A stretch of DNA of 64,000 nt, taken from assembly GCA_016218485.1 (NCBI GenBank), contig JACRDY010000059.1:11529-75528 (forward strand). The letters are read 5' to 3'. The translations under genes were made by a program, and so were the position numbers. Each line of letters begins with the position of its first letter. The stretch's first letter is position 1. Below, piece after piece: positions 14,790-63,895 of the stretch. The notes beneath the pieces were generated by a model that had not been told where the DNA came from, ran no database searches, and was given only the letters and a program-made list of their open reading frames with translations. The DNA is from Candidatus Falkowbacteria bacterium (GTDB lineage Bacteria; Patescibacteriota; Patescibacteriia; JACRDY01).

Positions 14790-14898
14790 ATTAATTACGA
14801 ATTACGAATTAAGAATTGTAGATTTTATTGCTGGTTGGGGGCGGGTAGACGCGGTACGTCGCTTTTTTTGTTACCCAAAGTTTGCTAAAATAAGACCA

Positions 14899-16668
14899 AT
14901 GCAGAGACACTTCACCACTCGCAAGCCCGACTACTCGCTGCACTCTTGGCGTGTGCGGTTTTTGTGGTGGGTGATCGTGGTCTTGACCGCCATTGTGATC
15001 GTTCGGCTATTCTGGCTGCAGGTAGTGCGCCATAGTGACTATCAGAATTTGGCGGCGCTGCAGCATGATATTTACCAGGAAGTATTGCCGGACCGGGGCA
15101 TTATCTATACGCAAAACACGCGGCTGGCTGAAGGCGCGGAAAATAAGTACTTTCCGGTGGCCAATAACCAGCGGTTTTATCTTATCTACGGCCAAACCTT
15201 TGCCGTCGAGGACGCGGGCAAGACCGCCGAGCAGCTGAATGCTGTTTTGGATTTGCCGCCGGACGTGCTGGCGCGCATTATTGAACAGCTGTCCAAACCC
15301 AATGATCCCTACGAGCCGTTGGTACATCGGGTGACGGAAGATAAGATCGCGGCCTTGTCCGCGCTGGCGCTGCCCGGCATCAAGTGGGAAGAGGAAACAC
15401 TGCGCTATTATCCGGACAAAAATATCGGCAGCAATATTCTCGGTTTTGTCGGCTGGGTCAATGATACGCTCGTCGGTCAGTACGGCCTGGAAGGCTATTT
15501 CAATAAAGAGTTGAGCGGAGAAAAGGGGTTTTTGCGCTCCGAGCGCGATGCTACCGGCCGGCTGATCGGCGTCGGCGAGCAGAACTTTAAAGAGGCGCTC
15601 AACGGCACTGACCTGTATCTGACTATTGATAATTCCATTCAAGCTTTTGCCTGTCAGACGTTGGGCGACGCCGTCACCAAGTACGACGCCGATGGCGGCG
15701 CGGTCATCGTGACCAATCCGCGCACCGGCGCAGTTCTCGCTCTGTGCAATAACCCCGACTACGATCCTAATGACTACAGCGCGGTGGAGAATATCCGCTC
15801 CTACACCATTCCGGCGATCTTTGACGCCTATGAGCCGGGCAGTGTTTTTAAGCCGCTGACACTGGCGGCGGCGCTGGAAGAGGGGAAAATCACCCCCGAG
15901 ACCACTTACGAAGATACCGGCGAGGTCAAGATTGACGGTTACAGTATCAAGAATTCTGACCTTAAAGGCCACGGCATGGTTAGCATGGTGGATGTGCTCA
16001 AACTGTCGCTCAACACCGGCGCCATCTTCGGCATGCGCCAAATCGGGCCGGCCAAGTTCGCCGACTACGTGCGCAATTTCGGTTTCGGCGAGCTGACCGG
16101 TATTCAGCTGGATAGCGAGGCGGCCGGGAACATTACCCCGCTCAAGAAGAATAAAGAAATCTACGCCGCCACCGCCTCGTTCGGTCAGGGCATCACGGTG
16201 ACGCCGCTGCAGATGGTCAATGCCTACGCGGCGATTGCCAACGGCGGTACGTTAATGAAACCGTACATCGTGGAACGAACTGTTGACGCGCTGGGCAGTG
16301 AATACCGCGCCGTGCCACAGGAGATCCGCCGGGTCGTCAGTGAGCGCACTGCCACTTTGATCTCTGGCATGATGGTGCAGGTGGTGGAGGCCGGCTACGG
16401 TCAGCGCGCCAAAGTGCCCGGCTACTACATCGCCGGCAAGACCGGTACGGCGCAGGTGGCTGAACCCGGCAGTGGCGTCTACGGCAGCCGGACTATGCAC
16501 ACCTTTGTCGGCTTTGGGCCGGTCAGCGATCCGCAGTTCGTCATGCTGGTGCGCTTGGATCACCCCACCGCCGCGCGCTTTGCCGAGAGTACCGCCACGC
16601 CCGCCTGGGGGCAGATCGCCAAGTTTATTCTCAACTACTACCAGATTCGGCCGGATGAGGTTAAGTAA
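14899..16668 (+). CDS. penicillin-binding protein 2 / peptidoglycan D,D-transpeptidase (FtsI family)
   Basis: TM segment FLWWVIVVLTAIVIV; SxxK (GSVFKP), SLN and KTG(T) motifs; start at the ATG at 14899 is inferred. Confidence 0.85.
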   Translation: MQRHFTTRKPDYSLHSWRVRFLWWVIVVLTAIVIVRLFWLQVVRHSDYQNLAALQHDIYQEVLPDRGIIYTQNTRLAEGAENKYFPVANNQRFYLIYGQTFAVEDAGKTAEQLNAVLDLPPDVLARIIEQLSKPNDPYEPLVHRVTEDKIAALSALALPGIKWEEETLRYYPDKNIGSNILGFVGWVNDTLVGQYGLEGYFNKELSGEKGFLRSERDATGRLIGVGEQNFKEALNGTDLYLTIDNSIQAFACQTLGDAVTKYDADGGAVIVTNPRTGAVLALCNNPDYDPNDYSAVENIRSYTIPAIFDAYEPGSVFKPLTLAAALEEGKITPETTYEDTGEVKIDGYSIKNSDLKGHGMVSMVDVLKLSLNTGAIFGMRQIGPAKFADYVRNFGFGELTGIQLDSEAAGNITPLKKNKEIYAATASFGQGITVTPLQMVNAYAAIANGGTLMKPYIVERTVDALGSEYRAVPQEIRRVVSERTATLISGMMVQVVEAGYGQRAKVPGYYIAGKTGTAQVAEPGSGVYGSRTMHTFVGFGPVSDPQFVMLVRLDHPTAARFAESTATPAWGQIAKFILNYYQIRPDEVK

Positions 16669-16669
16669 A

Positions 16670-16810
16670 TTGTTACATTGCTACATTGCCAAATTGCCAA
16701 ATGGTCATTCTGTTATATTGCTATATGGTTATACTGTTAAATACCCCACCAAACAATATAACAGTATAGCAATGTGACAATTTAGCAATTTGGCAATGGA
16801 GCAATGTATT
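16670..16810. repeat. Palindromic repeat built from attgcca/attgcta heptamers
   Basis: ttgctacattgccaaattgccaaatgg...ccatttggcaat-like arms; related copy at 32650-32740. Confidence 0.65.
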
Positions 16811-16871
16811 TTCCCATCTGTCCCGCCCATCTTGATTTTTCCTCATTCATCTGCTACACTGCCCAAACTCT

Positions 16872-18173
16872 ATGCGCGCTGTTATCGCCAAAATTCTCCG
16901 TTTCTTTGCTCGGAATGTATTGCAGAAATACCAGCCGGACGTTGTTGGCGTGACCGGCAGTATTGGTAAGACGTCCGCCAAGGAAGCCATCTTCACCGTC
17001 CTGTCCAGCGAGTTCCGCGTGCGCAAGACCGAGAAGAATTACAATAACGAGCTGGGCCTGCCTCTGACTGTCCTCGGTCTGGAAACCGGCGGGCGCAACC
17101 CCTTCTCTTGGCTGATGGTCATGGTGCGCGCCGCCAAGCTGTGGCTGCTGCGCTCCGTGAATTATCCGGAGATTTTGATCCTGGAAATGGGGGCGGATCG
17201 GCCCGGCGACATCAAGTACCTGACCGATTTCGTTCCCTGCACTGTCGGAGTGGTGACGGGCGTGGCGCCGGTGCACATTGAATTTTTCCAGCACCTTGAA
17301 CATATCGCCAAGGAAAAGAACACCCTGGTCAAAAGTTTGGGCAGAGAGGGCACGGCCGTGCTCAATGCCGATGATGAGCTGGTGCGGGCCATGGCCGAGG
17401 GGCTGAAAGCCAAAGTCATCACCTATGGCTTTTCCGAGCACGCCAGTCTGCGCGCCTACGAAGAGCGGGTGTCTGGTCAAGACCTGTCGCTCAAAGATGG
17501 CGTGGAGGCTATCCGGGGTTTGAGTTTCAAAGTGTCATACGGCGGCAGCACCGTGCCGGTATTCCTGCCGTCCGTGGTGGGGCGCCATTCGGTCAACGCC
17601 GCGCTGGCCGCCATTGCCGTGGGTGTGGCGTGTGGCATCAACCTGGTGCGTATTTCCGAAAATCTCAAACAGTATCGTCCGCCCAAGGGCAGAATGAACC
17701 TGATTGACGGCATCAAATACACGCTGATCATTGACGACACCTACAATTCTTCGCCGATTCCGGCGCTGGCCGCGCTGGATGTGCTCCACGAGATACAGCT
17801 GCCCACGGGTCGGCACAAGTTCGCGGTCCTTGGCGATATGCTGGAACTGGGCGGCTACACCGAGAAAGCGCATCTGGAAGTGGGGCGCAAAGTGGCCGAG
17901 CTCCGCATTGATTACCTGGTGACGGTTGGCGAGAAGTCGCAGAGTACCGCCAACGCCGCGCGCGGCGCCGGTATGTCGCCGGATCGCATCTACTCATTTG
18001 ACAATTCCCGGGAAGCTGGTAAATTCCTGCAGGATCGGGTGGAGCAGGGCGATTTGATCTTAGTTAAAGGTTCGCAGGGTATGCGGATGGAGCGGATCGT
18101 CAAAGAGCTGATGGCCGAACCATTGCGCGCCGCTGAACTGCTGTGCCGGCAGGAAGGGAAGTGGTTGCAATAA
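16872..18173 (+). CDS. murF: UDP-N-acetylmuramoyl-tripeptide--D-alanyl-D-alanine ligase
   Basis: 433 aa; GVTGSIGKTS Mur ligase P-loop; MurF-like domain order. Confidence 0.88.
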   Translation: MRAVIAKILRFFARNVLQKYQPDVVGVTGSIGKTSAKEAIFTVLSSEFRVRKTEKNYNNELGLPLTVLGLETGGRNPFSWLMVMVRAAKLWLLRSVNYPEILILEMGADRPGDIKYLTDFVPCTVGVVTGVAPVHIEFFQHLEHIAKEKNTLVKSLGREGTAVLNADDELVRAMAEGLKAKVITYGFSEHASLRAYEERVSGQDLSLKDGVEAIRGLSFKVSYGGSTVPVFLPSVVGRHSVNAALAAIAVGVACGINLVRISENLKQYRPPKGRMNLIDGIKYTLIIDDTYNSSPIPALAALDVLHEIQLPTGRHKFAVLGDMLELGGYTEKAHLEVGRKVAELRIDYLVTVGEKSQSTANAARGAGMSPDRIYSFDNSREAGKFLQDRVEQGDLILVKGSQGMRMERIVKELMAEPLRAAELLCRQEGKWLQ

Positions 18174-18352
18174 TTACGAATTACGAATTACGAATGAGTG
18201 ATTTTTAATTCGTAATTATTAACAGGAGTTACGCACTTCTAAAATTTTCAGCTAATTTTAGAGTAACAATAAAAATTATTAACAGCTAATTTTAGCCAAT
18301 TTTTATTAAAAGTGCGTAACTCCTGTTATTAATTCGTAATTCGTAATTAAAC
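18172..18352. repeat. attacga heptamer repeats plus a ~28-bp-arm inverted repeat (taattattaacaggagttacgcactt ... aagtgcgtaactcctgttattaatt) just upstream of tRNA-Glu
   Basis: Read directly. Confidence 0.7.
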
Positions 18353-18704: not shown

Positions 18705-19769
18705 ATGCCAACGACGAAAGTCATGGCCGAGTATGTCTGGATGGATGGCCGGACGCCAACCGCCAAGCTGCGCTCAAAAACCAAAGTGATTGACGGGCCC
18801 ATTGGGCAGCTGTCGGATATCCCGCTGTGGGGTTTTGACGGCTCCAGCACCGAGCAGGCCGAGGGTCATTTTTCCGACTGCCTGCTGCAGCCGGTTTATT
18901 TTTTGCCTGATCCGGTGCGCGGGTTACCACATATTTTGGTTATGAGTGAGGTGCTGAACCCTGACGGTACGCCGCATCCGAGTAACACTCGGACGGTTTT
19001 ACGAAAGGTAACTGAACAGTACGCCGTCGCCGAGCCGCTGGCCGGCATTGAGCAGGAGTACACGTTGTACTACCAAGATCGTCCGGTCGGCTGGCCGGAG
19101 CGTGGGTTTCCGCACCCGCAGGGCCGCTACTACTGCGGCGTCGGCGCTGACGAAGTTTACGGCCGTGTTTTGGTTGAAGATCACATGAAGGCCTGTTTAG
19201 CCGCTGGCATTGCTCTGTCTGGGGTGAATGCCGAAGTCATGCCCGGTCAGTGGGAATTTCAGGTCGGCGCGTTGCCGCCGCTAGAATTGGCTGACCAACT
19301 GTGGCTGTCGCGCTGGCTCATCTACCGTCTGGGCGAAAATCATCAGTTCCATGTTAAGCTGGATCCCAAACCCATGCCGGGCGACTGGAATGGCGCCGGC
19401 GGACACACCAATTTTTCCACCAAAGCCATGCGTGAAGCAGGAGGCCTGCAGGCCATTGAAGCGGCTTGTCAGAAATTAGGCCAATTCCATAAGCAACATA
19501 TCGCTATTTATGGCGCGGACAATGACAAGCGTCTGACCGGCAAGCACGAGACGTGCGGTATCCGTGAGTTCCGCTTTGGCGTGTCGGATCGCGGCGCTTC
19601 CATCCGCATTCCGGCGGCGACCGCTAAGCAGCAACGCGGCTACCTGGAAGACCGCCGGCCGGCGGCAAATCTGGATCCGTACCAGATCCTGACGGCGCTT
19701 TTAGAGACGATCTGCGGCAGCGGTTTCGATCCCGCCAAGTATGGCTGGCAGCCGCAGGTGGTGATTTAA
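18705..19769 (+). CDS. glnII: glutamine synthetase type II (eukaryote-like GSII)
   Basis: 354 aa; AEYVWMDG...LWGFDGSSTEQAEG...SDC N-terminal GSII signature; length typical of GSII. Confidence 0.85.
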   Translation: MPTTKVMAEYVWMDGRTPTAKLRSKTKVIDGPIGQLSDIPLWGFDGSSTEQAEGHFSDCLLQPVYFLPDPVRGLPHILVMSEVLNPDGTPHPSNTRTVLRKVTEQYAVAEPLAGIEQEYTLYYQDRPVGWPERGFPHPQGRYYCGVGADEVYGRVLVEDHMKACLAAGIALSGVNAEVMPGQWEFQVGALPPLELADQLWLSRWLIYRLGENHQFHVKLDPKPMPGDWNGAGGHTNFSTKAMREAGGLQAIEAACQKLGQFHKQHIAIYGADNDKRLTGKHETCGIREFRFGVSDRGASIRIPAATAKQQRGYLEDRRPAANLDPYQILTALLETICGSGFDPAKYGWQPQVVI

Positions 19770-19839: not shown

Positions 19840-20400
19840 GAGGAGCACGTAGCCCGTTCCTCTCCAATCCATCAGAGAGGTCAGCCTGCCCCGCCCCGCA
19901 TTGTGCGGGGTGCGGGGCGAGGCAAGGGTGGAGGTTGCCGGAGTTTTTTAATCTCCTCCGAAGCGGGGCAGCACGTCTCCTCCCCTTGCGAGGTTCACCG
20001 AAGGTGACCGAAGTAAGGGGAGGGACAGGGTGGGGTTTTTATTGCTCTCACTCCCACCGTTATATCTAGTTCCACCGTTTGGGTGCTACCCCTCCGCGGG
20101 GGCTCGTTACTTTCTGCCTGCCCGCCACAACTTCGCAGATATTGGCGGGTAGCTTTGGCAGGCGGGTAACCAACTCCCACCCCCACCCATCAGGGCTTGA
20201 GCCCCTCAGGGCCGAAGGCCGCCCCCGTAAGCTTCCCCCGCACAATGCGGGGCAGGGGGAGACCCGCCCACTTCCACCCGCTCCGCGCCCACCCGCCGGT
20301 AGCCACTCCAGTACCCTGTCTGCTCCCTCGCGTCGCTCGGGGCAGTTGCCACCCCGAACCCCACCGGACTTATTTTGTTGGATGGTTGATGGTGGTTGAT
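19840..20400. repeat. Largest GC-rich mosaic repeat cluster (~560 bp)
   Basis: Contains ccccgcattgtgcgggg twice (both orientations), aaggggagggacagggtgggg, ggttgccggag, and ccgaaccccaccggacttattttgtt. Confidence 0.75.
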
Positions 20401-22470: not shown

Positions 22471-22477
22471 TATTGAG

Positions 22478-22725
22478 TATCTAGTATCTAGTATCTGGTA
22501 TCTAGGGAAAAGTCACTGCTGTAAGTTAATTTTAGATATTCAACTTTAGATGCCGTCTATGAAAAAGCGCTGACGAGCAGCGTAGCCTTAAATCAGACGA
22601 GCAAAATATATCAGACTTTAGCAAAATAAGCAAGGTAAGTAGAGGAGGTGTCTCATAATCTAGGTGATTTTCCCAGATACCAGATACCAGATACCAGATA
22701 CTAGATACCAGATACTAAATACGGT
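22478..22725. repeat. ~250-bp element bounded by inverted tandem heptamer arrays (tatctag x4 ... ccagata x6)
   Basis: Read directly; MITE-like architecture. Confidence 0.6.
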
Positions 22726-28770: not shown

Positions 28771-28831
28771 ATCCAGCACCTTTCAGAATACCCCGTCAGT
28801 TTGCTGCGGGGTATTCTGAAAGGTGCTGGAT
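28771..28831. repeat. atccagcacctttcagaatacccc...ggaaggtgctggat palindromic repeat (short form)
   Basis: Perfect ~28-bp arms. Confidence 0.8.
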
Positions 28832-28875
28832 TTATTTCAAAAGTCGCCCGATCGGGCGATTTTTGGGTATTGTGG

Positions 28876-31125: not shown

Positions 31126-31127
31126 TA

Positions 31128-31245
31128 ATCCAGCACCTTCCAGAATATCCCGCAGCAAGCTGACGGGGTATTCTGGAAGGTGCTGGATGAATGGCTGAGA
31201 GAGTATTTCTGTGGCGTGCACTACCCCGACAGGAAGGTGCTGGAT
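31128..31245. repeat. atccagcaccttccagaata... palindromic repeat (long form)
   Basis: Near-identical to 11846-11947. Confidence 0.8.
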
Positions 31246-45383: not shown

Positions 45384-45397
45384 TGTATCGTATACTA

Positions 45398-47004: not shown

Positions 47005-47090
47005 TAATTTTCTGTGTTATTCTGTGCTTTAGTCTGTGTTCTTCTGTGTGCGTTTTAAATTTATAGCACACAGACCACACAGACCCCGAC
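47005..47090. repeat. ctgtgt / cacaga heptamer-type palindromic repeat
   Basis: Read directly. Confidence 0.55.
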
Positions 47091-47294
47091 TGGCGTTGGG
47101 GCACGGAAAAACACGGAGTTGTAAGGTTAGGCTATCGCCATGGCTCTACAGCCATGGCTCTACCCTTGCATTATTTTTAATTTTTTGCTAAACTAAGCCC
47201 AGCTTAATTAAATCATCACTCATCTGCGCCATTTTCCTTCCCTTGTTTTTACAACAATCGGGCAGGCACAGAGAGGGATAATAAAGGAAAAAAT

Positions 47295-47990: not shown

Positions 47991-47997
47991 TTTTTAA

Positions 47998-48020
47998 TTA
48001 CGAATTACGAATTACGAATG
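47998..48020. repeat. Tandem heptamer array (attacga)x3 between rpsB and tsf
   Basis: Also at 14800-14822, 18172-18196 and (inverted) 18330-18352. Confidence 0.8.
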
Positions 48021-50018: not shown

Positions 50019-50019
50019 T

Positions 50020-50125
50020 AATCAGTAATCAGTAATCAGTAATCAGTAATCAGTAATCAGTAATCAGTAATCAGTAATCAGTAATCAGTAACTAGTTACT
50101 AGTTACTGATTACCAGTTACTTTAT
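50020..50125. repeat. Tandem heptamer array (agtaatc)x10 followed by inverted (agttact)x3
   Basis: Read directly. Confidence 0.9.
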
Positions 50126-51176: not shown

Positions 51177-51237
51177 ATCCAGCACCTTCCAGCATATCCC
51201 GTCAGCGTGCTGCGGGGTATGCTGGAAGGTGCTGGAT
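51177..51237. repeat. atccagcaccttccagcata... palindromic repeat (short form)
   Basis: Family copy. Confidence 0.8.
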
Positions 51238-51339: not shown

Positions 51340-51440
51340 TGCGTTTTAGTTATTGGAAAGAGATTTAGTATATCGTATGTCGTATATGGTATGTGGGGAA
51401 ATTCCCCCATATACCATATACCACATACTATATTCCCCCC
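51340..51440. repeat. gtatatg-heptamer-based palindrome directly upstream of paralog 1
   Basis: tcgtatgtcgtatatggtatgtgggg / ccccatataccatataccacatac. Confidence 0.6.
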
Positions 51441-51441
51441 T

Positions 51442-53091: not shown

Positions 53092-53154
53092 CGCACAGCA
53101 CAGAGCTTATAGCACAAAGCTATGCGCTCTGAGCTCTGTGCTTTGAGCTACTTT
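53092..53154. repeat. Inter-paralog palindromic spacer (gcacagcacaaagc...gctctgagctctgtgctttgagc); same at 54841-54903 and 58418-58477
   Basis: Three near-identical copies read directly. Confidence 0.8.
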
Positions 53155-54840: not shown

Positions 54841-54903
54841 CACACAGCACAAAGCGCAGAGCACAAAGCTATGCGCTCTGAGCTCTGTGCTTTGAGCTAC
54901 TGT

Positions 54904-56565
54904 ATGCCAACCTGTAAAAACTGCACCACCGACTTCACCATCACCGACGCAGACAAAACGTTCTACGCCAAGATTGACGTACCCGAGCCGACGCGCTGCC
55001 CGCAGTGCCGGAAACAGCGGCGTTTGAGCTTCCGCAATGAGTCAAATTTTTATTTAACCAAATGTCAGCGGTGTCATAAAGAAACGGTTTCGGTGTATTC
55101 ACCGAATAAACCTTTGGTGGTGTATTGTAAAGACTGCTGGTGGGGTGAGGACTGGAATCCGTTGGATTACGGCCAAGAGTTTGATTGGCAGAAAAGTTTT
55201 ACCGAGCAGTTTAGAGATCTGATGGCGGTGGTGCCGCGGCCGGCGCTCTTGCATTCCGAGAGCGTGAACTGCGATTATAGCATGTTTTCGGCCAATAATA
55301 AGGACTGCTACATGCTGGTACAGTCCAGTAACTGCGAAGAATGCCACTACTGCTACTGGGTGCAGAAATGCCGTAATTGTTTGGATTCGGCGTTTTGTTT
55401 GGACTGCGAGCTGTGCTATCAAGTTGTCGGCGGGGAAAAGTGTTATAACTGTTTTTATTGTAACAATTGTTCCGGTTGCTTGGACAGTCGGTTTCTGCTT
55501 AATTGTCGTGGCTGCAAAAATTGCTTTGGCTGCGTTAATCTCAATAACGCGCAATATTGCATTTTTAATGAACAGAAAACGAAAACCGAGTATGAAACAT
55601 TTATTCAATCAGTAGATTTTATTTCATACCGACACTACCGAGAGTACCAGGAAAAGTTTTATCAGTTTTCTTTACAGCACCCGCGTCGTTTCGCTGAAAT
55701 TTATCAGGCGGATAATTCTACGGGTAATTATCTCAAACGGGTTAAAAACGTCACCATGATTTTTGACGGTTATGATATTGAAGACTGTAGCTACGGTCAG
55801 CACGTCTTGCGTGAGGTGAAAGATGTGATGGATGTCAGTAATGCCGCTCGTAAAGCAGAATTAGTCTATGAAAGTGTTCAGGCGGTATTGAACGTGTATC
55901 AGATTCGTTTTAGTTTATTCCCGCGTCAAGGCGCTTCATTTTTGGATTACTGCGATCATTGCGTCGGGGCTAAGAATTGTTTCGGCTGCATCGCGGTGCG
56001 GAATCAAAAGTATTGCATTTTGAATAAACAGTATAGTGAAAAAGAATATACCGTTGTGGTGCCGAAAATTATTAATCACCTCAAACAAACAGGGAAGTGG
56101 GGAGAATTTTTTGATCCGAGTCTGTCGGCGTTTGGCTATAACGAAACGAACGCCATGGAATTTTTCCCGTTGACGAAAAAAGCGGCAATGACTCAAGGGT
56201 TTAACTGGGAGGATAACACCGGCGGTACTTTCGGCCAGGAAACAATCAAGTGGGCAAACATGCCGGATCGTTTCAGCGACTATGCGGGCGACTTGAGCCG
56301 AGAAGTGTTGACGTGCTCTGACTGCCGGCGGAATTATAAGTTGGTGGCCGTAGAACTGGATTTTTATAAAAAATATAGCTTACCCATTCCGCGGCAGTGC
56401 CCGAAGTGTCGCCACCGCGAGCGCATCACCAGCCGGAATCCGGAACAGCTGTATCACCGTGCCTGTATGAACGCAGGGTGTAAGAATGAATTTGAAACCA
56501 CGTATTCACCCGCCCGACCGGAAAAAGTTTATTGTGAAGCGTGTTACCAGAAAGAGATTTATTAG
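54904..56565 (+). CDS. Cys-rich multi-zinc-ribbon repeat protein, paralog 3
   Basis: Same architecture; 5' ~100 nt near-identical to paralogs 5 and 6. Confidence 0.8.
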   Translation: MPTCKNCTTDFTITDADKTFYAKIDVPEPTRCPQCRKQRRLSFRNESNFYLTKCQRCHKETVSVYSPNKPLVVYCKDCWWGEDWNPLDYGQEFDWQKSFTEQFRDLMAVVPRPALLHSESVNCDYSMFSANNKDCYMLVQSSNCEECHYCYWVQKCRNCLDSAFCLDCELCYQVVGGEKCYNCFYCNNCSGCLDSRFLLNCRGCKNCFGCVNLNNAQYCIFNEQKTKTEYETFIQSVDFISYRHYREYQEKFYQFSLQHPRRFAEIYQADNSTGNYLKRVKNVTMIFDGYDIEDCSYGQHVLREVKDVMDVSNAARKAELVYESVQAVLNVYQIRFSLFPRQGASFLDYCDHCVGAKNCFGCIAVRNQKYCILNKQYSEKEYTVVVPKIINHLKQTGKWGEFFDPSLSAFGYNETNAMEFFPLTKKAAMTQGFNWEDNTGGTFGQETIKWANMPDRFSDYAGDLSREVLTCSDCRRNYKLVAVELDFYKKYSLPIPRQCPKCRHRERITSRNPEQLYHRACMNAGCKNEFETTYSPARPEKVYCEACYQKEIY

Positions 56566-56650
56566 GAACGACACGCCCTCTGGGCGTGTTATGTTTGTTA
56601 CGCGCTCTGTAACCATAACACAGCCAGAGGCTGTGTCGTTCCCTTGGAGG
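56566..56650. repeat. Inter-paralog gacacgccctctgggcgtgttatg...cataacacagccagaggctgtgtc palindrome
   Basis: Same family as 48850-48950 and 60112-60190. Confidence 0.8.
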
Positions 56651-56695
56651 AACAATTTTTGACAAAATTTAAAATCCTGGCTATACTAAAGCATT

Positions 56696-58417
56696 ATGCC
56701 ATACTGCCGAAATTGCTCCCAAGCGTTTGACATTACGTTAAAAGAAAAAGATTTTTACGCTAAGATGGGCACCAAACAGCCGAGCCATTGTTTTGATTGC
56801 CGGATGCAGCGCAAGTACGCGTTCAGAAATGAGCGCAAAATTTATAACCGCCAGTGCAGCTTGTGTCAGCAACAGATTATCAGCTCTTACCCGGCGGACG
56901 CGCCTTTTCCGGTGTATTGTTTTGATTGTTGGTGGTCGGATCGGTGGGACGGTTTGAGCTACGGCCGGGATTTTGATTGGTCCCGTCCATTTTTTTCGCA
57001 ACTCTCTGAGCTGTCGCTCAAGGTCCCGCACCAAGCCCTGCCCAATCCGAATAATAACCAGAACAGCCCGTATGTTACGTGGGCCGATTGGAACAAAAAT
57101 TGTTATTTAGTCTTTTCTTCTTCAATGTGTGAAGATTGTTTGTACTCTGAAGTTTTGGTTGACGCTCGAGACTGTGTTGACTGCACGAATGTTAAAGAAT
57201 CGGAGAACTGTTATTTTTCTATCGATTTGCAGAAATGCTATAACGTCAAATTTAGCCGCAATGTAAAAGATTGCCTGGATTGTAATTTTTGTTTTGATTG
57301 CGCTGACTGCAAAAATTGTTTTTTGTCTTATAATCTGCGTCACGGAGAATACTATATCCGTAATGTTCAGTACTCGCCGGACGCGTATGTCCAGGCAGTC
57401 GAGCGGATTATGGCCAGCCGCAGCGAGCTCGTGCGGGCGTGGGATGAATTTATTAACATGATGCGCTCTGACGCCATCCACCAGTTCGCTCGTCAGGTGA
57501 AGTGTGAAGACGTGGAGGGTGATGAGCTGTATGCCTGCAAGCGCAGTTTCAATAGTTTTGATTCGCGCGAGATTCAGGATTGCTGCAATATTATTTACGG
57601 CGACAAGATTAACGACTGCGCTGATAGCTTCGCCATCGTTGACCACGCTGAAAAATGTTTGGAGGTCTTTAGTGTCAATGGCGGCTATCAAAATATGTAC
57701 GGCTATGGTTATTGGGGAAAATCCCAAAATAGCCGGTACAGCAATACCTGCGTTTCGTCCGTTGATTGTTTCGGCTGCATTGGTCTAAAACACCAGAAAT
57801 ATTGTATTCTGAACAAGCAGTATTTGGCGGCCGAATATCAAATCATGGTCAAAAAAGTTTTGGAACATATGCGGAAGTCTAATTATCCGACGTACGCTGG
57901 CCAGACGAGCGAGTGGGGTGAATTTTTCCCGGTGCAGCTTTCACCCTTTGCTTATAATGAAACAATGGCTCATGTTTATTATCCGCTTAAAAAAGAAGAA
58001 GTTTTAGCGCGCGGCTGGGGCTGGAGGGACGAAAATGATATACTCACTGGTAAAGAAACTATTCATGGGGAGGCATTGCCGGATGCTGCGGCATCAGTTC
58101 CCAAGGGCATGACTGACCAGGTGATCGGCTGCGCTGACTGTGGCCGGAATTACAAGCTGATCAAGCAGGAAATAGATTTCTACACCAAACATACTCTGCC
58201 GCTGCCCAAGATGTGTCCGGAGTGCCGCTTTCAGCAGCGGTTGGCCCTGCGTAATCCGCGTAAGCTGTGGCCGCGGCAGTGCACCTGTCTCCTGGGTCAC
58301 GCCAGCCATCAGGGTCAATCAGTCTGTCCGATTCATTTCAAGACCACCTACCGGCCGGCCGAAGGGGGAGAGGCGAAAGTGTATTGTGAGGAATGTTATC
58401 AGAAGGAAATTTACTAG
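56696..58417 (+). CDS. Cys-rich multi-zinc-ribbon repeat protein, paralog 4
   Basis: Same architecture (MPYCRNCSQAF... ...VYCEECYQKEIY). Confidence 0.8.
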   Translation: MPYCRNCSQAFDITLKEKDFYAKMGTKQPSHCFDCRMQRKYAFRNERKIYNRQCSLCQQQIISSYPADAPFPVYCFDCWWSDRWDGLSYGRDFDWSRPFFSQLSELSLKVPHQALPNPNNNQNSPYVTWADWNKNCYLVFSSSMCEDCLYSEVLVDARDCVDCTNVKESENCYFSIDLQKCYNVKFSRNVKDCLDCNFCFDCADCKNCFLSYNLRHGEYYIRNVQYSPDAYVQAVERIMASRSELVRAWDEFINMMRSDAIHQFARQVKCEDVEGDELYACKRSFNSFDSREIQDCCNIIYGDKINDCADSFAIVDHAEKCLEVFSVNGGYQNMYGYGYWGKSQNSRYSNTCVSSVDCFGCIGLKHQKYCILNKQYLAAEYQIMVKKVLEHMRKSNYPTYAGQTSEWGEFFPVQLSPFAYNETMAHVYYPLKKEEVLARGWGWRDENDILTGKETIHGEALPDAAASVPKGMTDQVIGCADCGRNYKLIKQEIDFYTKHTLPLPKMCPECRFQQRLALRNPRKLWPRQCTCLLGHASHQGQSVCPIHFKTTYRPAEGGEAKVYCEECYQKEIY

Positions 58418-58477
58418 TGCACAGCACAAAGCGCACAGCACAAAGCTATGCGCTCTGAGCTCTGTGCTTTGAGCTAT

Positions 58478-60109
58478 ATGCCTAAATGTAAACAATGCAC
58501 CACCGATTTCCCCATCACCGACGCAGACAAAACGTTCTACGCCAAGATTGACGTACCTAAACCGACGCGCTGTCCGCAATGCCGCCGCGTTCGCCGATTG
58601 AGCTACCGTAATGAAATCACATTGTATCCCGCCATCTGTGGTTTGTGTAAGAAAAGCATGATCAGCATGTACAACCCGGACGGATCGTATGTGGTGTATT
58701 GTCAGGATTGCTGGTGGGGAGACGGCTGGGACCCGACGGCATCCGGTCAGACGTATGATCCGAGCCGATCATTTTTTGAACAATTTAGTGAGTTGATGAA
58801 AAAAGTGCCGCGGATCAGTTTGATTAATAAAGAAGCGGACAATAGCGAGTACTGTAATTTTTCTTGGCGGAACAAAAATTCCTACCTTTTATTTACCGGC
58901 GGAGAGAACGATGACGTGTTTTATGCTAATCGCTGCTGGAAGTGCCGGAGTAGTATTGATTGCTCCAACCTGTATAATTGTGAATTGTGTTATGAAGCGA
59001 CTGATTCCGCCAATTGTTATAATTGCGCTTGGCTAGAATACTCAACCGGCTGCTCTGACTGTTGGCTGGGGTACAACCTTAGCGGCTGCTCGGACTGTTT
59101 CGGCTGCGTTAACCTGTCTAATCAGAAATTTCATATTTTTAATACCCCGGTACCTGAAGCCGAGTACCGTCAGCGGATCGCGGAGTTGAAGAAGGACCTG
59201 CCGGCGGCGGCGCAGCTATTTCGGGCACAAAAAATGAAAGGGGTGCGCAAGTACGCCAATATTATAAAATCAGTGAATTGCAGCGGTGATTCAATCGTTG
59301 GCAGCAAGAATTGCCAGTCGTGTTTCCGGGTCAAAGACGCGGAAGACTGCAAGTACGTTTGCGATACGACATTGATCAAAGACAGCTATGACGTTGATAA
59401 CGATGATCATTCAGAATTGCTCTATGAGTGCATTGGTAACGAGTCCAACCATAATCAGCAATTCATTGACATCTGCTGGTTTGATCGGGATATTCAGTAC
59501 TGTAGCCTCTGCATGAGCTCAAAGAATCTGTTTGGCTGTGTGGGAATGAAAAACGCGGAGTACTGTATTTTGAATAAAAAATATTCAGCGGAAGAATATG
59601 AGACGCTACGCCAGCAGATTATTGTCAAAATGAAACAAGATGGGGAATATGGTGAGTTTTTTCCCAGTAAATTTTCGCCCTTTGGTTATAATGAGACGAA
59701 CGCCTCCCTGTATTACGAGCTCAAAAAAGAGCAGGCTGTTGCCGCCGGCTTTACCTGGCAGGACAATTTGCCGTCAACGACTGGTAAAGAAACGCTCAAG
59801 GAATTACCGGCGGACATTAGCCAGGTAAACGAGGGGATTACCAAAGAGATTTTGGCCTGCCAGTCGTGCGGTAAGAATTATAAATTTATTCCCCAGGAAG
59901 TGAAACTGTATAAAATGCTCGGCGTACCGCTCCCGCCACAGTGTTTCCGCTGTCGTCATGTTGGCCGGATCCACCGACGGAATGGCCAGACACTCTATAG
60001 CCGCACCTGCATGAAAGACGGCTGCAAGAATTCATTTGAGACGCCATACGCGCCGGATCGGAAAGAAGTGGTTTACTGTGAGGAGTGCTATCAGAAGGAA
60101 ATTTACTAA
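58478..60109 (+). CDS. Cys-rich multi-zinc-ribbon repeat protein, paralog 5
   Basis: Same architecture. Confidence 0.8.
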   Translation: MPKCKQCTTDFPITDADKTFYAKIDVPKPTRCPQCRRVRRLSYRNEITLYPAICGLCKKSMISMYNPDGSYVVYCQDCWWGDGWDPTASGQTYDPSRSFFEQFSELMKKVPRISLINKEADNSEYCNFSWRNKNSYLLFTGGENDDVFYANRCWKCRSSIDCSNLYNCELCYEATDSANCYNCAWLEYSTGCSDCWLGYNLSGCSDCFGCVNLSNQKFHIFNTPVPEAEYRQRIAELKKDLPAAAQLFRAQKMKGVRKYANIIKSVNCSGDSIVGSKNCQSCFRVKDAEDCKYVCDTTLIKDSYDVDNDDHSELLYECIGNESNHNQQFIDICWFDRDIQYCSLCMSSKNLFGCVGMKNAEYCILNKKYSAEEYETLRQQIIVKMKQDGEYGEFFPSKFSPFGYNETNASLYYELKKEQAVAAGFTWQDNLPSTTGKETLKELPADISQVNEGITKEILACQSCGKNYKFIPQEVKLYKMLGVPLPPQCFRCRHVGRIHRRNGQTLYSRTCMKDGCKNSFETPYAPDRKEVVYCEECYQKEIY

Positions 60110-60111
60110 CA

Positions 60112-60190
60112 AGGGAACGACACGCCCTCTGGGCGTGTTATGTCGGTTACACGCTCTGTAACGATAACACAGCCAGAGGCTGTGTCGCTC
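60112..60190. repeat. Inter-paralog palindrome (same family as 56566-56650)
   Basis: Near-identical. Confidence 0.8.
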
Positions 60191-60200
60191 CGAACAGCAT

Positions 60201-61841
60201 ATGCCAACCTGTAAACAATGCACCACCGACTTTCCCATCACCGACGCAGACAAAACGTTCTACGCTAAGATTAGCGTACCCGAGCCGACGCGCTGTCCGG
60301 ACTGCCGGCAGCAGCGACGGTTGTCGTGGGTCAATGAAATGAATCTATATCCCCGTCAGTGCGACCTATCAGGTAAAAATATTATTTCGTCATGTCGGCC
60401 GGATAGCGGCTTGATTATTTATGATACTCACCGGTGGTGGGGTGACGGCTGGGAAGGTCTGAATTTTGGGGTTGAGTATAATGAGGGTCAAAAATTTTTT
60501 GATCAATTTTTTGCATTACATAAGACCGTACCCCATCCAGCGCTCAACGTTACCTATGGCACGTTGATTGACAGCGAGTACGTGAATTACTGTGGTCATA
60601 CCAAAAGTAGCTACCTGATATTTGACAGTGACTACGATGAGGATTGCTATTACTGCTATTCAGTTAATAATTCTAAAGACCTGGTTGATTGTTTAAAAAT
60701 GCAGCGTTCTGAATTGTGCTATAGCTGTATTGACTGCGATGAATGTTTTAACTTGTTTTACTCTCAAGATTGTTTGCGCTGTTCCGAGAGTTATTGGTTA
60801 AAAAACTGTTACAACTGCGTCAATTGTTTTGGCTGCGTGAATGCGCGGAATCAGAAGTATTGTTGGTTCAACGAACAATTAACGCCGGAAGAATATCAAC
60901 GTCGTTTAGCCGGAGCTACCATCAGCAGCCGTCAGGCGGTTAGACAGTGGCAGACGAAGTATGCGGATTTTAGATTGCAGTATCCCTGTATTTACCAGCA
61001 CGGGATCAAAAATGACGGCTGTACCGGCGATTACCTGAAAAACACCAATCAAGTCGCTGATTCGTATGATTGCTGGGAGGCGCAGAATTGCCGCTACTGT
61101 TACGCGATTTATTTTTCCTCAAAAGATATGTATGACGTTTTCCAGTGGGGGAATTGTCAGCTGATGTATGAAGGCGTGGTGGTGGGGGAGAATGATTATA
61201 ACTGCAAATTTTGTTTCCAATGCTATAACAGCTGTCAAAACCTAGAATACTGTTTTGAGAGTCATGGCTGCAAAAACTGCTTTGGCTGTGTTGGCTTAAA
61301 GAAAAAAGAATTTTGCATTCTTAATAAACAGTATACCGAACCGGAGTACTTACGATTACGGGAACAGATTATTCAGAAAATGAAAGCCGATGGTGAATAT
61401 GGCGAGTTTTTCCCGGCGGCATATTCTCCGTTTGGTTATAATGAAACGACGGCCCGGTTTTACTATCCGTTGTCGCGCGAGCAGGCGCTGGAACGTGGCT
61501 GGCGCTGGTTTGATCAAGAGGAAAAGAACGTTGATCATAAAGCACCGCCGGATGATTTGGGAATGGTGACCGAGGATATATTGAGAGAAACGTACGTCTG
61601 CGCCTGTGGCAAGTCGTTCAAAATTATTCCCCAGGAATGGAAATTTTATCAGAATTTAAAAATCCCTCTGCCCGATCAATGTTACATCTGCCGTCATCAG
61701 GATAGACTACGGCAGCGCAACCCGCAGCATCTCTGGCCGCGTCAGTGTGCCAAATGTCAGAAAGACATGCAGACGACATATGCTCCGGACCGGCCGGAAA
61801 TAGTCTACTGTCGTGAATGTTTCCGCGAGGCAGTGTATTAG
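60201..61841 (+). CDS. Cys-rich multi-zinc-ribbon repeat protein, paralog 6
   Basis: Same architecture; C-terminus diverged to YCRECFREAVY. Confidence 0.8.
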   Translation: MPTCKQCTTDFPITDADKTFYAKISVPEPTRCPDCRQQRRLSWVNEMNLYPRQCDLSGKNIISSCRPDSGLIIYDTHRWWGDGWEGLNFGVEYNEGQKFFDQFFALHKTVPHPALNVTYGTLIDSEYVNYCGHTKSSYLIFDSDYDEDCYYCYSVNNSKDLVDCLKMQRSELCYSCIDCDECFNLFYSQDCLRCSESYWLKNCYNCVNCFGCVNARNQKYCWFNEQLTPEEYQRRLAGATISSRQAVRQWQTKYADFRLQYPCIYQHGIKNDGCTGDYLKNTNQVADSYDCWEAQNCRYCYAIYFSSKDMYDVFQWGNCQLMYEGVVVGENDYNCKFCFQCYNSCQNLEYCFESHGCKNCFGCVGLKKKEFCILNKQYTEPEYLRLREQIIQKMKADGEYGEFFPAAYSPFGYNETTARFYYPLSREQALERGWRWFDQEEKNVDHKAPPDDLGMVTEDILRETYVCACGKSFKIIPQEWKFYQNLKIPLPDQCYICRHQDRLRQRNPQHLWPRQCAKCQKDMQTTYAPDRPEIVYCRECFREAVY

Positions 61842-61844
61842 ACA

Positions 61845-61900
61845 CAGATTACACAGATAATCACAACTGGCACAGATCCGTGTGATCTGTGTAATCTGTG
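61845..61900. repeat. cacagat heptamer-based palindrome
   Basis: gacacagattacacagataatcaca...gtgatctgtgtaatctgtgtc. Confidence 0.7.
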
Positions 61901-61904
61901 TCTA

Positions 61905-61965
61905 AAAAAAAGAGCCGGCGGACGCGCCAGGCGAGGTGGATACTTCGCGCGTCCGTCGGTTTTTT
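61905..61965. terminator. Bidirectional intrinsic terminator (cggacgcgc...gcgcgtccg stem with T-runs on both strands)
   Basis: Read directly. Confidence 0.7.
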
Positions 61966-62257: not shown

Positions 62258-62411
62258 TGTCCCCTCCTATGGTTTGAGGATGTCTATAGGGTACAGGGAT
62301 TTTTTCTTTTTGTCAAAGGTATTTAAAAGGTATTTAAAATCCACATTATTTTCGGGGGACGAATTTTGTGCTATACTGTGTTTACCGATATATCAATAAT
62401 TAAAGAGGTAT

Positions 62412-62532
62412 TTAGATATTAGAAATTAGATATTGGAAATTAAAGACTCTACTTTTCTGGTTAACCGGGGTTTTAAAATCTTGGTTAAGAAAGACATTGC
62501 TGACAAACAATTTCCAATATCTAATTTCCAAT
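62412..62532. repeat. Complete composite palindromic element (agatattagaaattagatattggaaatt ... ggttaaccggggttttaaaatcttggttaag ... caatttccaatatctaatttccaatttct) upstream of eno
   Basis: Related to 8070-8215 and 2478-2512. Confidence 0.7.
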
Positions 62533-62543
62533 TTCTATTTTTT

Positions 62544-63803
62544 ATGAAAATAAAACAAATCCGCGCTCGTGAGATTCTTGATTCTCGCGGCGACCCGACC
62601 GTTGAGGTCGAGGTAGTGTTGAGGAACGGCATTCGGGTGAAAGCTTCAGTACCCTCCGGCGCTTCCACGGGCGCGCATGAGGCTTGGGAGTTCCGTGACG
62701 GCGACAAGAAACGGTACGGTGGTAAGGGTGTGTTGAAAGCGGTACGAAACGTCAATGACAAAATCGCGCCGATGCTTCTGGGCCAGCGTGCCAATAAGCA
62801 GTCGTACCTGGATGAACTGATGATTAAGTTGGACGGCACCAAGAACAAGCAGAATCTCGGCGCTAATGCCATTCTCGGTGTGTCACTGGCAGTTGCCCGC
62901 GCCGCCGCGGCGAGTAAAGGCTGGCCTTTGTATAAATACCTCCGGACGTTGTCGTCGCTGGAACTGATGCGCTACCAGCTGCCCATGCCGATGTTTAATA
63001 TTTTTAACGGCGGTAAGCACGCCGACACCAATCTTGATTTCCAGGAATTCATGATCATCCCGAAAGGGCTGAACGGCAGCTTCGCGGAAAAAGTTCGGGC
63101 GGGCGCGGAAGTCTTTCATGCGCTTGGTAAAGTGCTCTTGGCCAACGGCAAAGATACCGATGTGGGGAATGAGGGCGGGTACGCGCCGGATATTCACCTG
63201 ACGACTGACGCCATCAAGTATATTCTGACGGCGATTACCAAAGCCGGATACAATAAGGGTAAACAGCAGATTTTTCTCGGCACTGACGTGGGCGCGTCCG
63301 AGCTCTACCGCAAGAGCCAAAAAGAGTATCATTTTCAGCTCGGGGTTCATCGCCTCAACCGTCAGCAGATGATTGACGAGTTTGCCGAATGGCTGACTAA
63401 GTATCCATTCTGTTCCATTGAAGACCCGCTGGATCAGGATGATTGGCTCGGCTGGCAGCAAATCACCAAACAGCTGGGCAGAAAGGTGATGCTGGTGGGC
63501 GATGATCTGTTTGTTACCAATGTCGATCGTTTAACCATAGGTATTAGTAAAAATGCGGGCAATGCCGTTTTGGTCAAGCTCAATCAAGTCGGCAGCCTGT
63601 CTGAAACCCTGCGCTGTATTGAGCTGGCTAAGGCGCATCGCTACAATGTGGTGATTTCGCACCGCTCTGGTGAAACATCCGATGATTTTATCGCTGATCT
63701 GGCCGTGGCGGTCAATGCCGAGTATATCAAGTCAGGGTCGCTGTCCCGCGGCGAGCGTCTGGCCAAGTATAATCGGCTGATGGAAATTGAGAGAGAAATT
63801 TAA
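62544..63803 (+). CDS. eno: enolase
   Basis: MKIKQIRAREILDSRGDPTVEVEV... the ORF-track start at 62433 is an upstream extension through the repeat. Confidence 0.95.
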   Translation: MKIKQIRAREILDSRGDPTVEVEVVLRNGIRVKASVPSGASTGAHEAWEFRDGDKKRYGGKGVLKAVRNVNDKIAPMLLGQRANKQSYLDELMIKLDGTKNKQNLGANAILGVSLAVARAAAASKGWPLYKYLRTLSSLELMRYQLPMPMFNIFNGGKHADTNLDFQEFMIIPKGLNGSFAEKVRAGAEVFHALGKVLLANGKDTDVGNEGGYAPDIHLTTDAIKYILTAITKAGYNKGKQQIFLGTDVGASELYRKSQKEYHFQLGVHRLNRQQMIDEFAEWLTKYPFCSIEDPLDQDDWLGWQQITKQLGRKVMLVGDDLFVTNVDRLTIGISKNAGNAVLVKLNQVGSLSETLRCIELAKAHRYNVVISHRSGETSDDFIADLAVAVNAEYIKSGSLSRGERLAKYNRLMEIEREI

Positions 63804-63895
63804 GATTGCAGATTTCAGATTGCAGATTGGTATAGTAGTAACGTTACGTACCAACCCAATCTGCAATCTGAAATCTGCAATCTGAAATCTACTAT
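63785..63895. repeat. gattgca / gatttca heptamer-based palindrome between eno and gpmI
   Basis: Read directly. Confidence 0.75.

Follow-up and report, generated by a model that had tools for sequence, protein, structure and literature searches.

Tandem heptamer repeats have reportedly been known since 1990, when Mazel et al. are said to have described the short tandemly repeated repetitive (STRR) sequences of cyanobacteria, and a study from 2007 is said to have found heptamers to be the commonest long simple sequence repeats (SSRs) in bacteria. The classical units STRR1-3 are CCCCAGT, TTGGTCA and CAACAGT. Here we describe heptamer arrays in one 64-kb window (the whole stretch of contig JACRDY010000059.1 that was analysed; positions are counted from its first letter) of a single metagenome-assembled genome (MAG) of Candidatus Falkowbacteria, an uncultured, groundwater-type member of the Candidate Phyla Radiation (CPR). 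The arrays belong to a type of feature already known and extend it to a new lineage: heptanucleotide repeats of the long-SSR (LSSR)/STRR type, some of them with units of 8-10 nt. Particular to the window are the mostly palindromic form of the arrays, the dispersal of composite elements and the extremely tight fit of these elements between coding sequences (CDSs).

In the passages of two papers that cite Mrazek (2007), heptanucleotides are given as the most abundant long SSRs of LSSR-rich bacteria, with polymerase slippage proposed as their origin (PMC4679880, PMC4692102), and a passage of the latter mentions three heptamers (STRRs) in Calothrix (PMC4692102). Xanthomonas genomes carry intergenic GGGAATC heptamers, including 70-75 inverted pairs per genome that are capable of forming stem-loops (Rehm et al., 2015, PMC4692102); the length and sequence of these repeats vary among related species, and their type, single or inverted pair, tends to persist (PMC4692102). 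In Beggiatoaceae, Cyanobacteria and Bacteroidetes, TAACTGA arrays lie a few nucleotides upstream of starts that lack a canonical ribosome-binding site (MacGregor, 2015, PMC4679880), and S1, Csp and CsrA have been suggested as their readers (PMC4679880). Heptamers near starts affect reporter expression in Nostoc (bioRxiv 10.1101/2022.06.06.494920), and start-proximal heptamer repeats have been described in contexts poor in Shine-Dalgarno (SD) sequences (PMC4679880; bioRxiv 10.1101/2022.06.06.494920). No report of heptamer repeats in CPR/Patescibacteria was found in the literature searched.

The arrays of the window resemble LSSR/STRR repeats, as PMC4679880 and PMC4692102 summarise them, in being tandem, 7 nt in period, over-represented and intergenic, in occupying many loci with several units per genome, and in the slippage that has been proposed to generate them. 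They differ in their host, a compact CPR genome rather than a large-genome cyanobacterium, in which they reach ~0.7 arrays/kb, and in being mostly palindromic and hugging CDS ends. The units are also different from STRR1-3; AGTAATC (equivalent to CAGTAAT) shares the core CAGT, which is also present in STRR1, in STRR3 and in TAACTGA when this is reverse-complemented. An assignment to STRR in the strict sense was rejected: TypA and EF-Ts of the window match Candidatus Falkowbacteria proteins at NCBI with 100% identity, so that the host is not a heterocystous cyanobacterium, and the units are not the same. In an exact look-up, the GAPDH protein of the window had no entry.

Closely spaced, intergenic inverted pairs of heptamers are shared with Xanthomonas, where a single G-rich, G-quadruplex-forming unit dominates; here, more than 15 different AT-rich units without G-tracts or G-quadruplex potential occur, some in composite elements. 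Like TAACTGA repeats, the arrays can be start-proximal without a canonical ribosome-binding site, occur in ribosomal-protein operons, use heptamers common to unrelated phyla and occasionally lie within open reading frames (ORFs). In Beggiatoaceae-type repeats, however, there is a single unit that is nearly always direct (one indirect repeat in 170 sets; PMC4679880), whereas the window has many units, mostly as inverted pairs that abut stops as often as starts. No TAACTGA array is present in the Tandem Repeats Finder (TRF) output for the window, where the nearest unit is CAGTAAT, compared with CAGTTAT for the rotated reverse complement of TAACTGA. Repetitive extragenic palindromes (REPs), bacterial interspersed mosaic elements, REP doublets forming hairpins (REPINs) and MITEs (miniature inverted-repeat transposable elements) (PMC3116915) are likewise extragenic, hairpin-forming palindromes; they form families dispersed in both orientations, share transcripts with the genes that flank them and can be nested. 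Unlike them, the window elements have arms with a tandem periodicity of 7-8 nt and few copies per family, and neither a REP-associated tyrosine transposase (RAYT) or other transposase nor target-site duplications were seen in the window.

CRISPR arrays, DNA-uptake sequences and phase-variation contingency loci were also weighed and set aside. CRISPR arrays consist of 24-48-nt direct repeats with unique spacers of similar length, and the units here are 7-10 nt and contiguous. They are also of many kinds, the arrays lie neither between promoter elements nor within the frames of surface genes, and no length variation was observed.

Periodicity and palindromic anatomy of the arrays

TRF returned 102 rows in the window, which were merged into 69 clusters. 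Period 7 leads all other periods with 34/69 clusters (2.1-13.3 copies per array), and a further 12/69 have period 8; a minority of arrays have periods of 8-10. Third-order Markov shuffles of the window gave a mean of 1.35 period-7 and 1.55 period-8 rows, so that the excess of period 7 over composition is ~25-fold; relative to other genomes it is 6-15-fold. The density of period-7 clusters is 0.53/kb in the window, compared to 0.034/kb in loci of diverse prokaryotes (1.39 Mb) and 0.092/kb in mostly Patescibacteria loci (0.87 Mb); this census material included ~60%-identical GAPDH loci of many phyla and loci around TypA in relatives, and gene order around TypA was not conserved in the relatives compared. 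Array density is uniform along the window and similar in the syntenic relative L166 (see below). Although non-coding DNA makes up just 17.3% of the window, it contains 29/34 period-7 clusters (P = 9e-18, binomial test). Consistent with this, the base-match frequency of non-coding DNA peaks at lags of 7, 14 and 21 (0.324, 0.300 and 0.280, compared to ~0.27 elsewhere), and the autocorrelation of coding DNA shows a period-3 signal only. A first-pass annotation of the sequence had proposed that intergenic regions carry tandem heptamer arrays, with no excess of period 7 over other periods as the outcome that would speak against it; for the window, these counts bear the proposal out.

The arrays are often palindromic, as had also been proposed. 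An inverted partner lies within 400 nt of 35/48 period-7/8 arrays (with at least 2.5 copies), an arrangement of the Xanthomonas inverted-pair type, and the typical layout is array, loop and inverted array with arms of 20-65 nt. When intergenic regions were folded with RNAfold and compared to shuffles, z-scores ranged from -4.2 to -14.6 at 15 paired loci, with the arrays forming the stem, which upholds the predicted hairpins; the octamer pair at 32660-32742 reached a z of only -2.1. Pairing between arms extends over 69-100% of their length, whereas the period self-match within an arm is often just 0.5-0.85, and where a unit deviates in one arm, its partner shows the matching deviation; at 869-946, for example, the 34-bp arms match perfectly although two of their units are variants. 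Because arm pairing exceeds self-match and variants are mirrored, the arms are copies of each other rather than independently grown. Among arm mismatches in the sense orientation, G.U-compatible ones show no excess over A.C ones (12 vs 22), which gives no sign of RNA-specific selection and fits upkeep of the symmetry at the DNA level. Some arrays are nearly perfect (AGTAATC x11.9, 96% matches; CTAAGGA x5.6, 100%), and the arms of 50008-50123 are unequal (12 copies vs 5), both of which point to ongoing slippage. Inner segments enclosed by inverted arrays range from 4 nt to 1.6 kb and include nested palindromes and an ORF with a PF05635 match. Solo arrays also occur: AATTACG at 14793 and 47996, GAAATTG-type units at 2481 and 8076, TAGAAAGT at 7129 and CTAAGGA at 11595 and 13226. 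The elements are as follows (dG, folding free energy in kcal/mol; z, RNAfold z-score):

869-946: AAAACATT x4.8, a 6-nt loop and the inverted unit x4.2; 34-bp perfect palindrome, dG -44, z -11.8; overlaps the last codons of the convergent miaA (stop 894) and gatB (stop 925)
2481-2509: solo GAAATTG array, family E
6403-6561: family A quasi-palindrome with units AGTTCAA, AATCCAA and ATGACAA, z -7.0; occupies the whole gap from a kinase-like gene (stop 6560) to the dUTPase gene (start 6396)
7129-7160: solo TAGAAAGT array, 2 nt upstream of the start at 7126 (minus strand)
8076-8107: solo array of ATTGGAA/ATTAGAA units (family E) between divergent genes
9140-9173: AGTTGAAAGTTATAAAG array whose inverted partner is at 9563-9612 (29-nt match, 100% identity)
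9563-9612: inverted AGTTGAAAGTTATAAAG partner array, just downstream of the canonical terminator at 9627-9647 (minus strand) that follows rplA
10410-10495: family B hairpin of alternating 7- and 8-nt units AAGTTGA and AAGTTATA, z -5.1; overlaps the rplK stop
10960-11045: family B hairpin, z -11.0; overlaps the nusG stop
11595-11646: (CTAAGGA)n, reading in the sense direction on the minus strand and preceding the nusG start by 7 nt; inverted copy of 13226-13271
13226-13271: CTAAGGA x5.6, plus strand, preceding the start of a PilT/T2SSE-type ATPase gene by 2 nt
14322-14448: family A element, z -9.0; fills the whole gap, overlapping the stop by 2 nt and ending 5 nt before the next start
14793-14817: solo AATTACG x3.6, plus strand, 3 nt after a stop and followed by a canonical terminator-like site at 14838-14865
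16669-16810: octamer palindrome ATTGCCAA / ATTGCTAC, z -8.6, directly 3' of the PBP2 stop
18171-18349: AATTACG x3.4 (18172-18195) and inverted x2.7 (18330-18348) around a nested second palindrome, dG -65, z -14.6; overlaps the Mur-ligase stop and ends 5 nt before tRNA-Glu
22474-22724: AGTATCT x4.3 (22476-22505) and CCAGATA x6.1 (22673-22715), inverted and 180 nt apart, z -5.0; in the divergent region between typA and a VTT-domain gene, ending 17 nt before a start
32660-32742: octamer palindrome AAATTGCC / TAACAATG, abutting or overlapping the uvrB start
45397-45520: family A element, z -4.7, 13 nt after the uvrC stop; 87% identical (inverted) to 14328-14445
47008-47087: hairpin of TTCTGTG... 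/ CACACAGAC, period 9-10, z -11.4 (for 47005-47180), 3 nt after the prephenate dehydratase stop
47996-48019: solo AATTACG x3.4, plus strand, in the 44-nt rpsB-tsf spacer
50008-50123: AGTAATC x11.9 (50008-50091) and inverted AGTTACT x5 (50087-50121), an asymmetric palindrome, z -4.2; overlaps the GAPDH stop and ends 6 nt before the AI-2E transporter start
51366-51436: hairpin of GTATATC x3.6 (51368-51392) and CCATATA x3.9 (51407-51433), z -6.7, ending 5 nt short of the ATG at 51442 with which the first zf_Tbcl paralogue probably starts
61842-61902: ACACAGATT hairpin, period 9, z -8.7, directly after the stop of the last zf_Tbcl paralogue and followed by a canonical terminator
62410-62543: family E palindrome GAAATTAGATATTGG..., z -4.6, ending at the probable enolase start (62544)
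63796-63892: AGATTGC / AGATTTC palindrome with AGATTGC x3.9 (63803-63829) and CAATCTG x4.9 (63857-63890), dG -57, z -12.5; overlaps the enolase stop

TRF found repeats at or near all eight further loci named in the first-pass annotation. Those listed as attacga, agtaatc, ccagata, gattgca and gtatatg are heptamer arrays, with the TRF coordinates given above. Several others have periods of 8-10 instead of 7: the supposed heptamer attgcca is an octamer at both of its sites (16669-16808 and 32665-32739), cacagat (61842-61902) has a period of 9, and ctgtgt (47010-47085) one of 9-10. Arrays do occur throughout the range of 14800-63895 to which they had been assigned, and more lie upstream of it, at 869-946, 2481, 6403-6561, 7129, 8076, 9140-9612, 10410-11045, 11595 and 13226.

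Rfam at the gathering threshold gave tRNA matches only (tRNA-Glu and one borderline hit) and no known RNA family for the arrays, and an E-value search over 9100-11700 returned only sub-threshold look-alikes of microRNA precursors, which are generic long hairpins. The borderline hit, at 35231-35299 (minus strand), is a weak tRNA match (29.8 bits vs a gathering score of 29) for which ARAGORN makes no call.

Several observations concern the immediate neighbours of the elements. The PF05635 (23S_rRNA_IVP) ORF at 9164-9508 (minus strand, E = 8.5e-34, G+C at third codon positions 0.33) lies between an inositol monophosphatase gene and rplA and, flanked as it is by the inverted AGTTGAAAGTTATAAAG arrays, looks like a cassette; no other PF05635 copy was present in the other loci checked for such an association. 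Near-identical leaders of ~45 nt (AACCGTGGGAGTCCGCCGCGGCGGACGCACGCACCAC...) at 10356-10410 and 10912-10960 (minus strand) precede rplA and rplK, each just downstream of a family B hairpin; they have no Rfam match and might be a duplicated regulatory leader, perhaps L1-binding, or a promoter. Six tandem paralogues of ~550-590 aa with N- and/or C-terminal treble-clef zinc-finger matches (zf_Tbcl, zf_Tbcl_2) occupy 51442-61841, and three of their junctions are conserved 30-nt gaps with AGCACAAAGC repeats.

Placement of the elements between genes

To locate the elements relative to genes, we used a heuristic gene map of our own, made by greedy ORF selection, in which four starts were corrected, three dubious ORFs dropped and tRNA-Glu added. 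ORF finders over-extend at least four genes into arrays (starts 14776, 51313, 62433 and 6417), and many gene starts throughout the window have AT-rich repeat DNA in front of them.

Relative to a stop codon, twelve elements begin at -11 to +5 nt and a thirteenth at +13 nt. At the other end, nine elements finish 0-7 nt before a start, and two more do so at 15-17 nt. Three elements (6403-6561, 14322-14448 and 50008-50123) fully occupy the gap between a stop and the next start. Where the space between genes measures 25 nt or more, elements are present in 18/34 tandem, 3/3 divergent and 1/2 convergent cases; nine gaps fall below 25 nt. The nusG-rplK, rplK-rplA and rpsB-tsf gaps all contain elements. 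The first-pass annotation had assigned most arrays to 3' untranslated regions or to the space between convergent or tandem genes; the tight association with stops agrees with this, and there are also start-proximal, divergent and intra-operon sites.

The nine starts with arrays 0-7 nt upstream form a subset comparable to the TAACTGA type, with SD-like matches that are weak or absent. SD-like sequences are scarce in the window: a strong match precedes 7/37 (19%) of the genes without an upstream array and ~15% of all genes, and it precedes none of the array-preceded genes; the CTAAGGA arrays contain a weak SD-like match only.

Dispersed families, relatives and phages

The period-7 signature of the non-coding DNA is strong. 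The first-pass annotation also held that each locus has its own heptamer, and this does not stand: the same unit families turn up at several places in the window, in a syntenic relative and in other phyla. Self-BLAST of the window and alignment revealed AATTACG, AGTTCAA-type, AAAGTTAT-type and GAAATTG-type families. Family A is a composite of ~125 nt with the unit order AGTTCAA, AGTTCAA, AATCCAA, ATGACAA, ATCAA..., and its copies at 6433-6561, 14328-14445 and 45401-45519 share 80-87% identity in both orientations. A common hairpin is kept in the three family A copies and in a related element of another genome, with a few compensatory changes. The family B copies (10361-10475 and 10917-11030) are 90% identical, family E is present at four loci, with matches at 2477-2514, 8078-8175 and 62412-62537, and AATTACG is likewise present at four. 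Families A, B, E and AATTACG each occupy 2-4 loci in both orientations, as dispersed extragenic palindrome families of the REP/REPIN kind do. The miaA coding region, too, contains heptad-like DNA resembling family A, at 95-140 and 305-345 (AAAATCC and AAAGTTC units), where it encodes stretches rich in Lys, Ser and Gln; that at 95-140 is an in-frame insertion of 15 residues relative to solved MiaA structures (PDB 2qgn).

Two dispersed families are not built of heptamers. Family C, with the core CCCCACCCTGTCCCTCCCCTTAC...GTAAGGGGAGGAGAC, lies at 2673-2789, 12834-12950, 19975-20039, 32378-32516 and 39657-39794, forms a large palindrome at 32365-32520 (dG ~-119 kcal/mol), and is also found in L084/L085 at 9951-9985, upstream of typA in a relative; the ORFs called over family C regions (2534-2836 and 20079-20399) are probably spurious. 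Family D comprises GC-rich, near-perfect palindromes of ~60 nt (ATCCAGCACCTTCCAGAATACCCCG...CGGGGTATTCTGGAAGGTGCTGGAT) at 28771-28832, 31127-31188, 51177-51237, 11845-11945 and 4896-4921, two copies of which share an extension or insertion of ~55 nt.

The syntenic relative, L166, a locus on a 182-kb contig, has an EF-Ts 65% identical to that of the window and shares gene order with 43.8-63.8 kb of it (uvrC, rpsB, tsf, gap, the AI-2E transporter gene, zf_Tbcl paralogues and eno), with two zf_Tbcl genes at the same place. It carries ~0.6 period-7/8 arrays/kb in the same architecture, hugging stops and starts, and most of its units differ from those of the window. AATTACG and AAAGTTAT hairpins also occur there at non-orthologous sites. 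The first-pass annotation had suggested a comparison of orthologous regions in relatives; in L166 the architecture is shared, and two orthologous sites share their unit family (see below). More distant Patescibacteria have paired arrays with the shared units AAATGAC, AGTTGAA and AATTACG, and Parcubacteria GW2011_GWC2_42_12 (EF-Ts 42% identical) has a family A-like element at a non-orthologous site; the genes flanking the element in the locus L107 show no orthology with window genes. The trait is patchy, with at least two paired arrays in 10/165 other loci.

Exact searches of IMG/VR for three consecutive copies of a unit found 64 stretches for AATTACG, 43 for AGTTCAA and 44 for AGTAATC, compared to 13, 8 and 1 for three control units matched in base composition. 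The HIP1 octamer (cyanobacterial-type) is abundant in eight of the 64 AATTACG loci; these contigs carry AATTACG arrays as in the window, as well as inverted pairs of AATTACG and of other heptamers. In two further IMG/VR loci with 59% G+C (L312 and L310), CAGTAAT, CAGTGAT, CAGTGGT or GGTCAGT arrays lie in nearly every gap, with up to 29 arrays in 9 kb, and these units have the CAGT core in common with the AGTAATC array of the window.

Some further features of the window touch on its genome context. Low-GC segments at 38335-39414 and 41726-43817 (0.39-0.42, compared to ~0.52 for the window) interrupt the uvrA...uvrC neighbourhood, hold a DndB-like gene (PF14072) and ORFs without a Pfam match, and are possibly acquired DNA. 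A single-chain large PurL (formylglycinamide ribonucleotide amidotransferase, 1272 aa) at 23591-27409 and a glutamine-synthetase-like gene at 18705-19769 are noteworthy biosynthetic content for a CPR genome.

Origin and possible roles of the arrays

We favour, with somewhat better than even confidence, the reading that the arrays are SSRs made by slippage, turned into palindromes by copying of arms at the DNA level, spread in a REP-like manner and confined by selection to intergenic DNA. Replication slippage would create and expand the arrays, with a preference for units of 7 nt that other bacteria share. One arm would be copied onto the other, by intrastrand template switching or by duplication-inversion, giving a quasi-palindrome of array, loop and inverted array, and whole composite elements would then spread to other intergenic regions in the way of REPs or MITEs. 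As every 7-nt unit throws a gene out of frame, selection would purge arrays from coding DNA and so leave gaps filled up to their stops and starts; an in-frame insertion such as that in miaA would be expected where indiscriminate expansion is filtered by selection. That an element of ~100 nt touches both a stop and a start would follow from gaps that are intrinsically tiny. When transcribed, the elements would form long AU-rich hairpins at cistron boundaries, which may have a part in the stability or processing of mRNA ends or influence initiation downstream; as candidate roles at the RNA level, they might protect 3' ends, be processed by RNase III, or mask or unmask the start that follows.

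Several observations speak against this reading. No transposase or RAYT is encoded among the ORFs of the 64-kb window scanned against Pfam, and although inverted arrays act as termini, no target-site duplications or empty sites were recognised on inspecting flanks and comparing them with L166. No variation in copy number was seen among three assemblies of the relative from different samples, which are 100% identical over 4.4 kb, arrays included. Two orthologous sites keep their unit family in L166, with ACACAGAT directly after the last zf_Tbcl gene and an AATTACG-type array between rpsB and tsf, even though EF-Ts is only 65% identical. AATTACG, AGTTCAA and AGTAATC recur across phyla 3-60x above the controls in IMG/VR; pure neutral slippage explains neither this nor the kept unit families. 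A streamlined Mu-like phage (L198; portal, terminase and DUF3164) keeps 12 AATTACG arrays, paired and solo, in 9.9 kb. Finally, solo arrays between co-directional ORFs show a modest strand bias, AATTACG towards sense (26:12) and AGTTCAA towards antisense (3:14), at sites that are not all independent. A sequence-specific function or a trans-acting factor would fit every one of these points.

Such a function is the substance of one alternative, which we regard as unlikely: the arrays would be cis-regulatory RNA or single-stranded DNA sites read by a protein with a footprint of ~7 nt (cold-shock-domain, S1 or CsrA-like) that controls initiation or coupling of translation where cistrons meet in an SD-poor genome, as has been proposed for TAACTGA repeats. 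Gap-spanning hairpins would join stop and start; alternatively, a terminating ribosome would unzip them and so unmask the next start. The arrays placed immediately upstream of starts, including the overlapped uvrB start, argue for this, as do the elements that span stop to start exactly, of which L166 and L107 offer further cases, and the confinement of strong SD matches to genes without an array. The recurrence of units across phyla and phages, the unit families kept at two orthologous sites and the strand bias of solo arrays point the same way, and the hypothesis has precedent (PMC4679880; bioRxiv 10.1101/2022.06.06.494920). However, with more than 15 units that have no motif in common, either numerous readers or an unspecific reader would be required, and no candidate binding protein was identified. 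Many elements abut a stop only or lie far from starts, and the tight fit to CDSs is equally explained by insertion into tiny gaps. The arms give no G.U signal of selection at the RNA level, and the strand-bias counts include non-independent sites of the same contigs.

Alternatively, the elements could be non-autonomous mobile elements of the REPIN or MITE type whose transposase is encoded elsewhere, with the heptad periodicity being a property of the families and not a product of slippage. This, too, has a low probability in our estimation. It would account for composites of ~120 nt in which different units follow one another in a constant order, at unrelated loci and in either orientation, and for the related element that a distant Parcubacteria genome carries at a non-orthologous site. 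The inverted arrays that flank segments of very different length, among them the low-GC PF05635 ORF and nested palindromes, would also fit, as would the dispersal of the non-heptamer palindromic families C and D. Set against it are the lack of a transposase or RAYT gene in the window and of recognisable target-site duplications or empty sites; moreover, many arrays are singletons with unique units, and perfect long arrays and unequal arms point to local slippage.

The first-pass annotation had suggested a terminator-like role, and the corresponding alternative, that paired arrays are Rho-independent and partly bidirectional terminators, is one that we consider quite improbable. Like intrinsic terminators, many elements form very stable stem-loops just after a stop, and one lies between convergent genes with a T-rich tail on one side; their 3' arms are U-rich, so that slippage of the pairing register could conceivably leave a U-tract. 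Yet the arms are AT-rich and 20-65 nt long, with stems of 21-43% G+C compared to 50-73% at the canonical terminator-like sites of the same window, and the 10 nt after the stem contain 1-4 T in 12/13 oriented hairpins (6 in the remaining one), compared to 4-9 at the canonical sites (6-9 in 5/6). Canonical terminators adjoin array elements at 9627-9647, 14838-14865 and 61911-61951, which implies that the arrays are not needed for termination there. Elements also occupy all three divergent regions, the rplK-rplA gap, the rpsB-tsf spacer (as a solo array with no hairpin) and sites immediately upstream of starts, and G.U pairs show no preference for the sense strand. A terminator scan of the window found 30 sites compared to 26.4 in shuffles, and thus no enrichment, and it caught 869-946 solely through internal T-runs. 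Because of these stem and tail features and of the divergent, intra-operon and start-proximal locations, a general terminator role is unlikely; the array elements are probably not ordinary transcription terminators, and a contribution to termination at some loci is possible.

An artefact of assembly or binning is very improbable indeed, for although the source is a MAG and two of the three assemblies of the relative, on short contigs, end inside an AATTACG palindrome, so that such repeats do break assemblies, the arrays lie well within a contig of 80.6 kb, keep to the boundaries of genes and come in recurrent families, the arrays of the relative are identical in three assemblies from different samples, and the same architecture is present in many independent public contigs.

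The arrays have practical consequences: being palindromic, they break short-read assemblies and mislead the calling of ORF starts. A density of ~0.7 arrays/kb is notable in a tiny, compact CPR genome, where every non-coding base is under pressure. The sharing of units with cyanobacteria and phages, together with the exact wedging between stops and starts, argues that the arrays are either extraordinarily invasive or useful, and the window provides a new, phylogenetically distant comparison set for weighing slippage against function.

A bolder proposal, to which we attach only a small chance, is that the cosmopolitan heptamers (AATTACG, AGTTCAA, AGTAATC/CAGT-core units and others) constitute a sequence-specific, phage-carried system that extends across phyla and is read by a conserved factor with a 7-nt footprint. 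It is suggested by the 3-60x recurrence of units, the two conserved orthologous sites, the AATTACG-saturated Mu-like phage and the exact stop-to-start placement. If it were true, arrays at cistron boundaries would set initiation, coupling or mRNA fate in lineages that make sparing use of SD sequences, namely CPR, cyanobacteria, Bacteroidetes and Beggiatoaceae.

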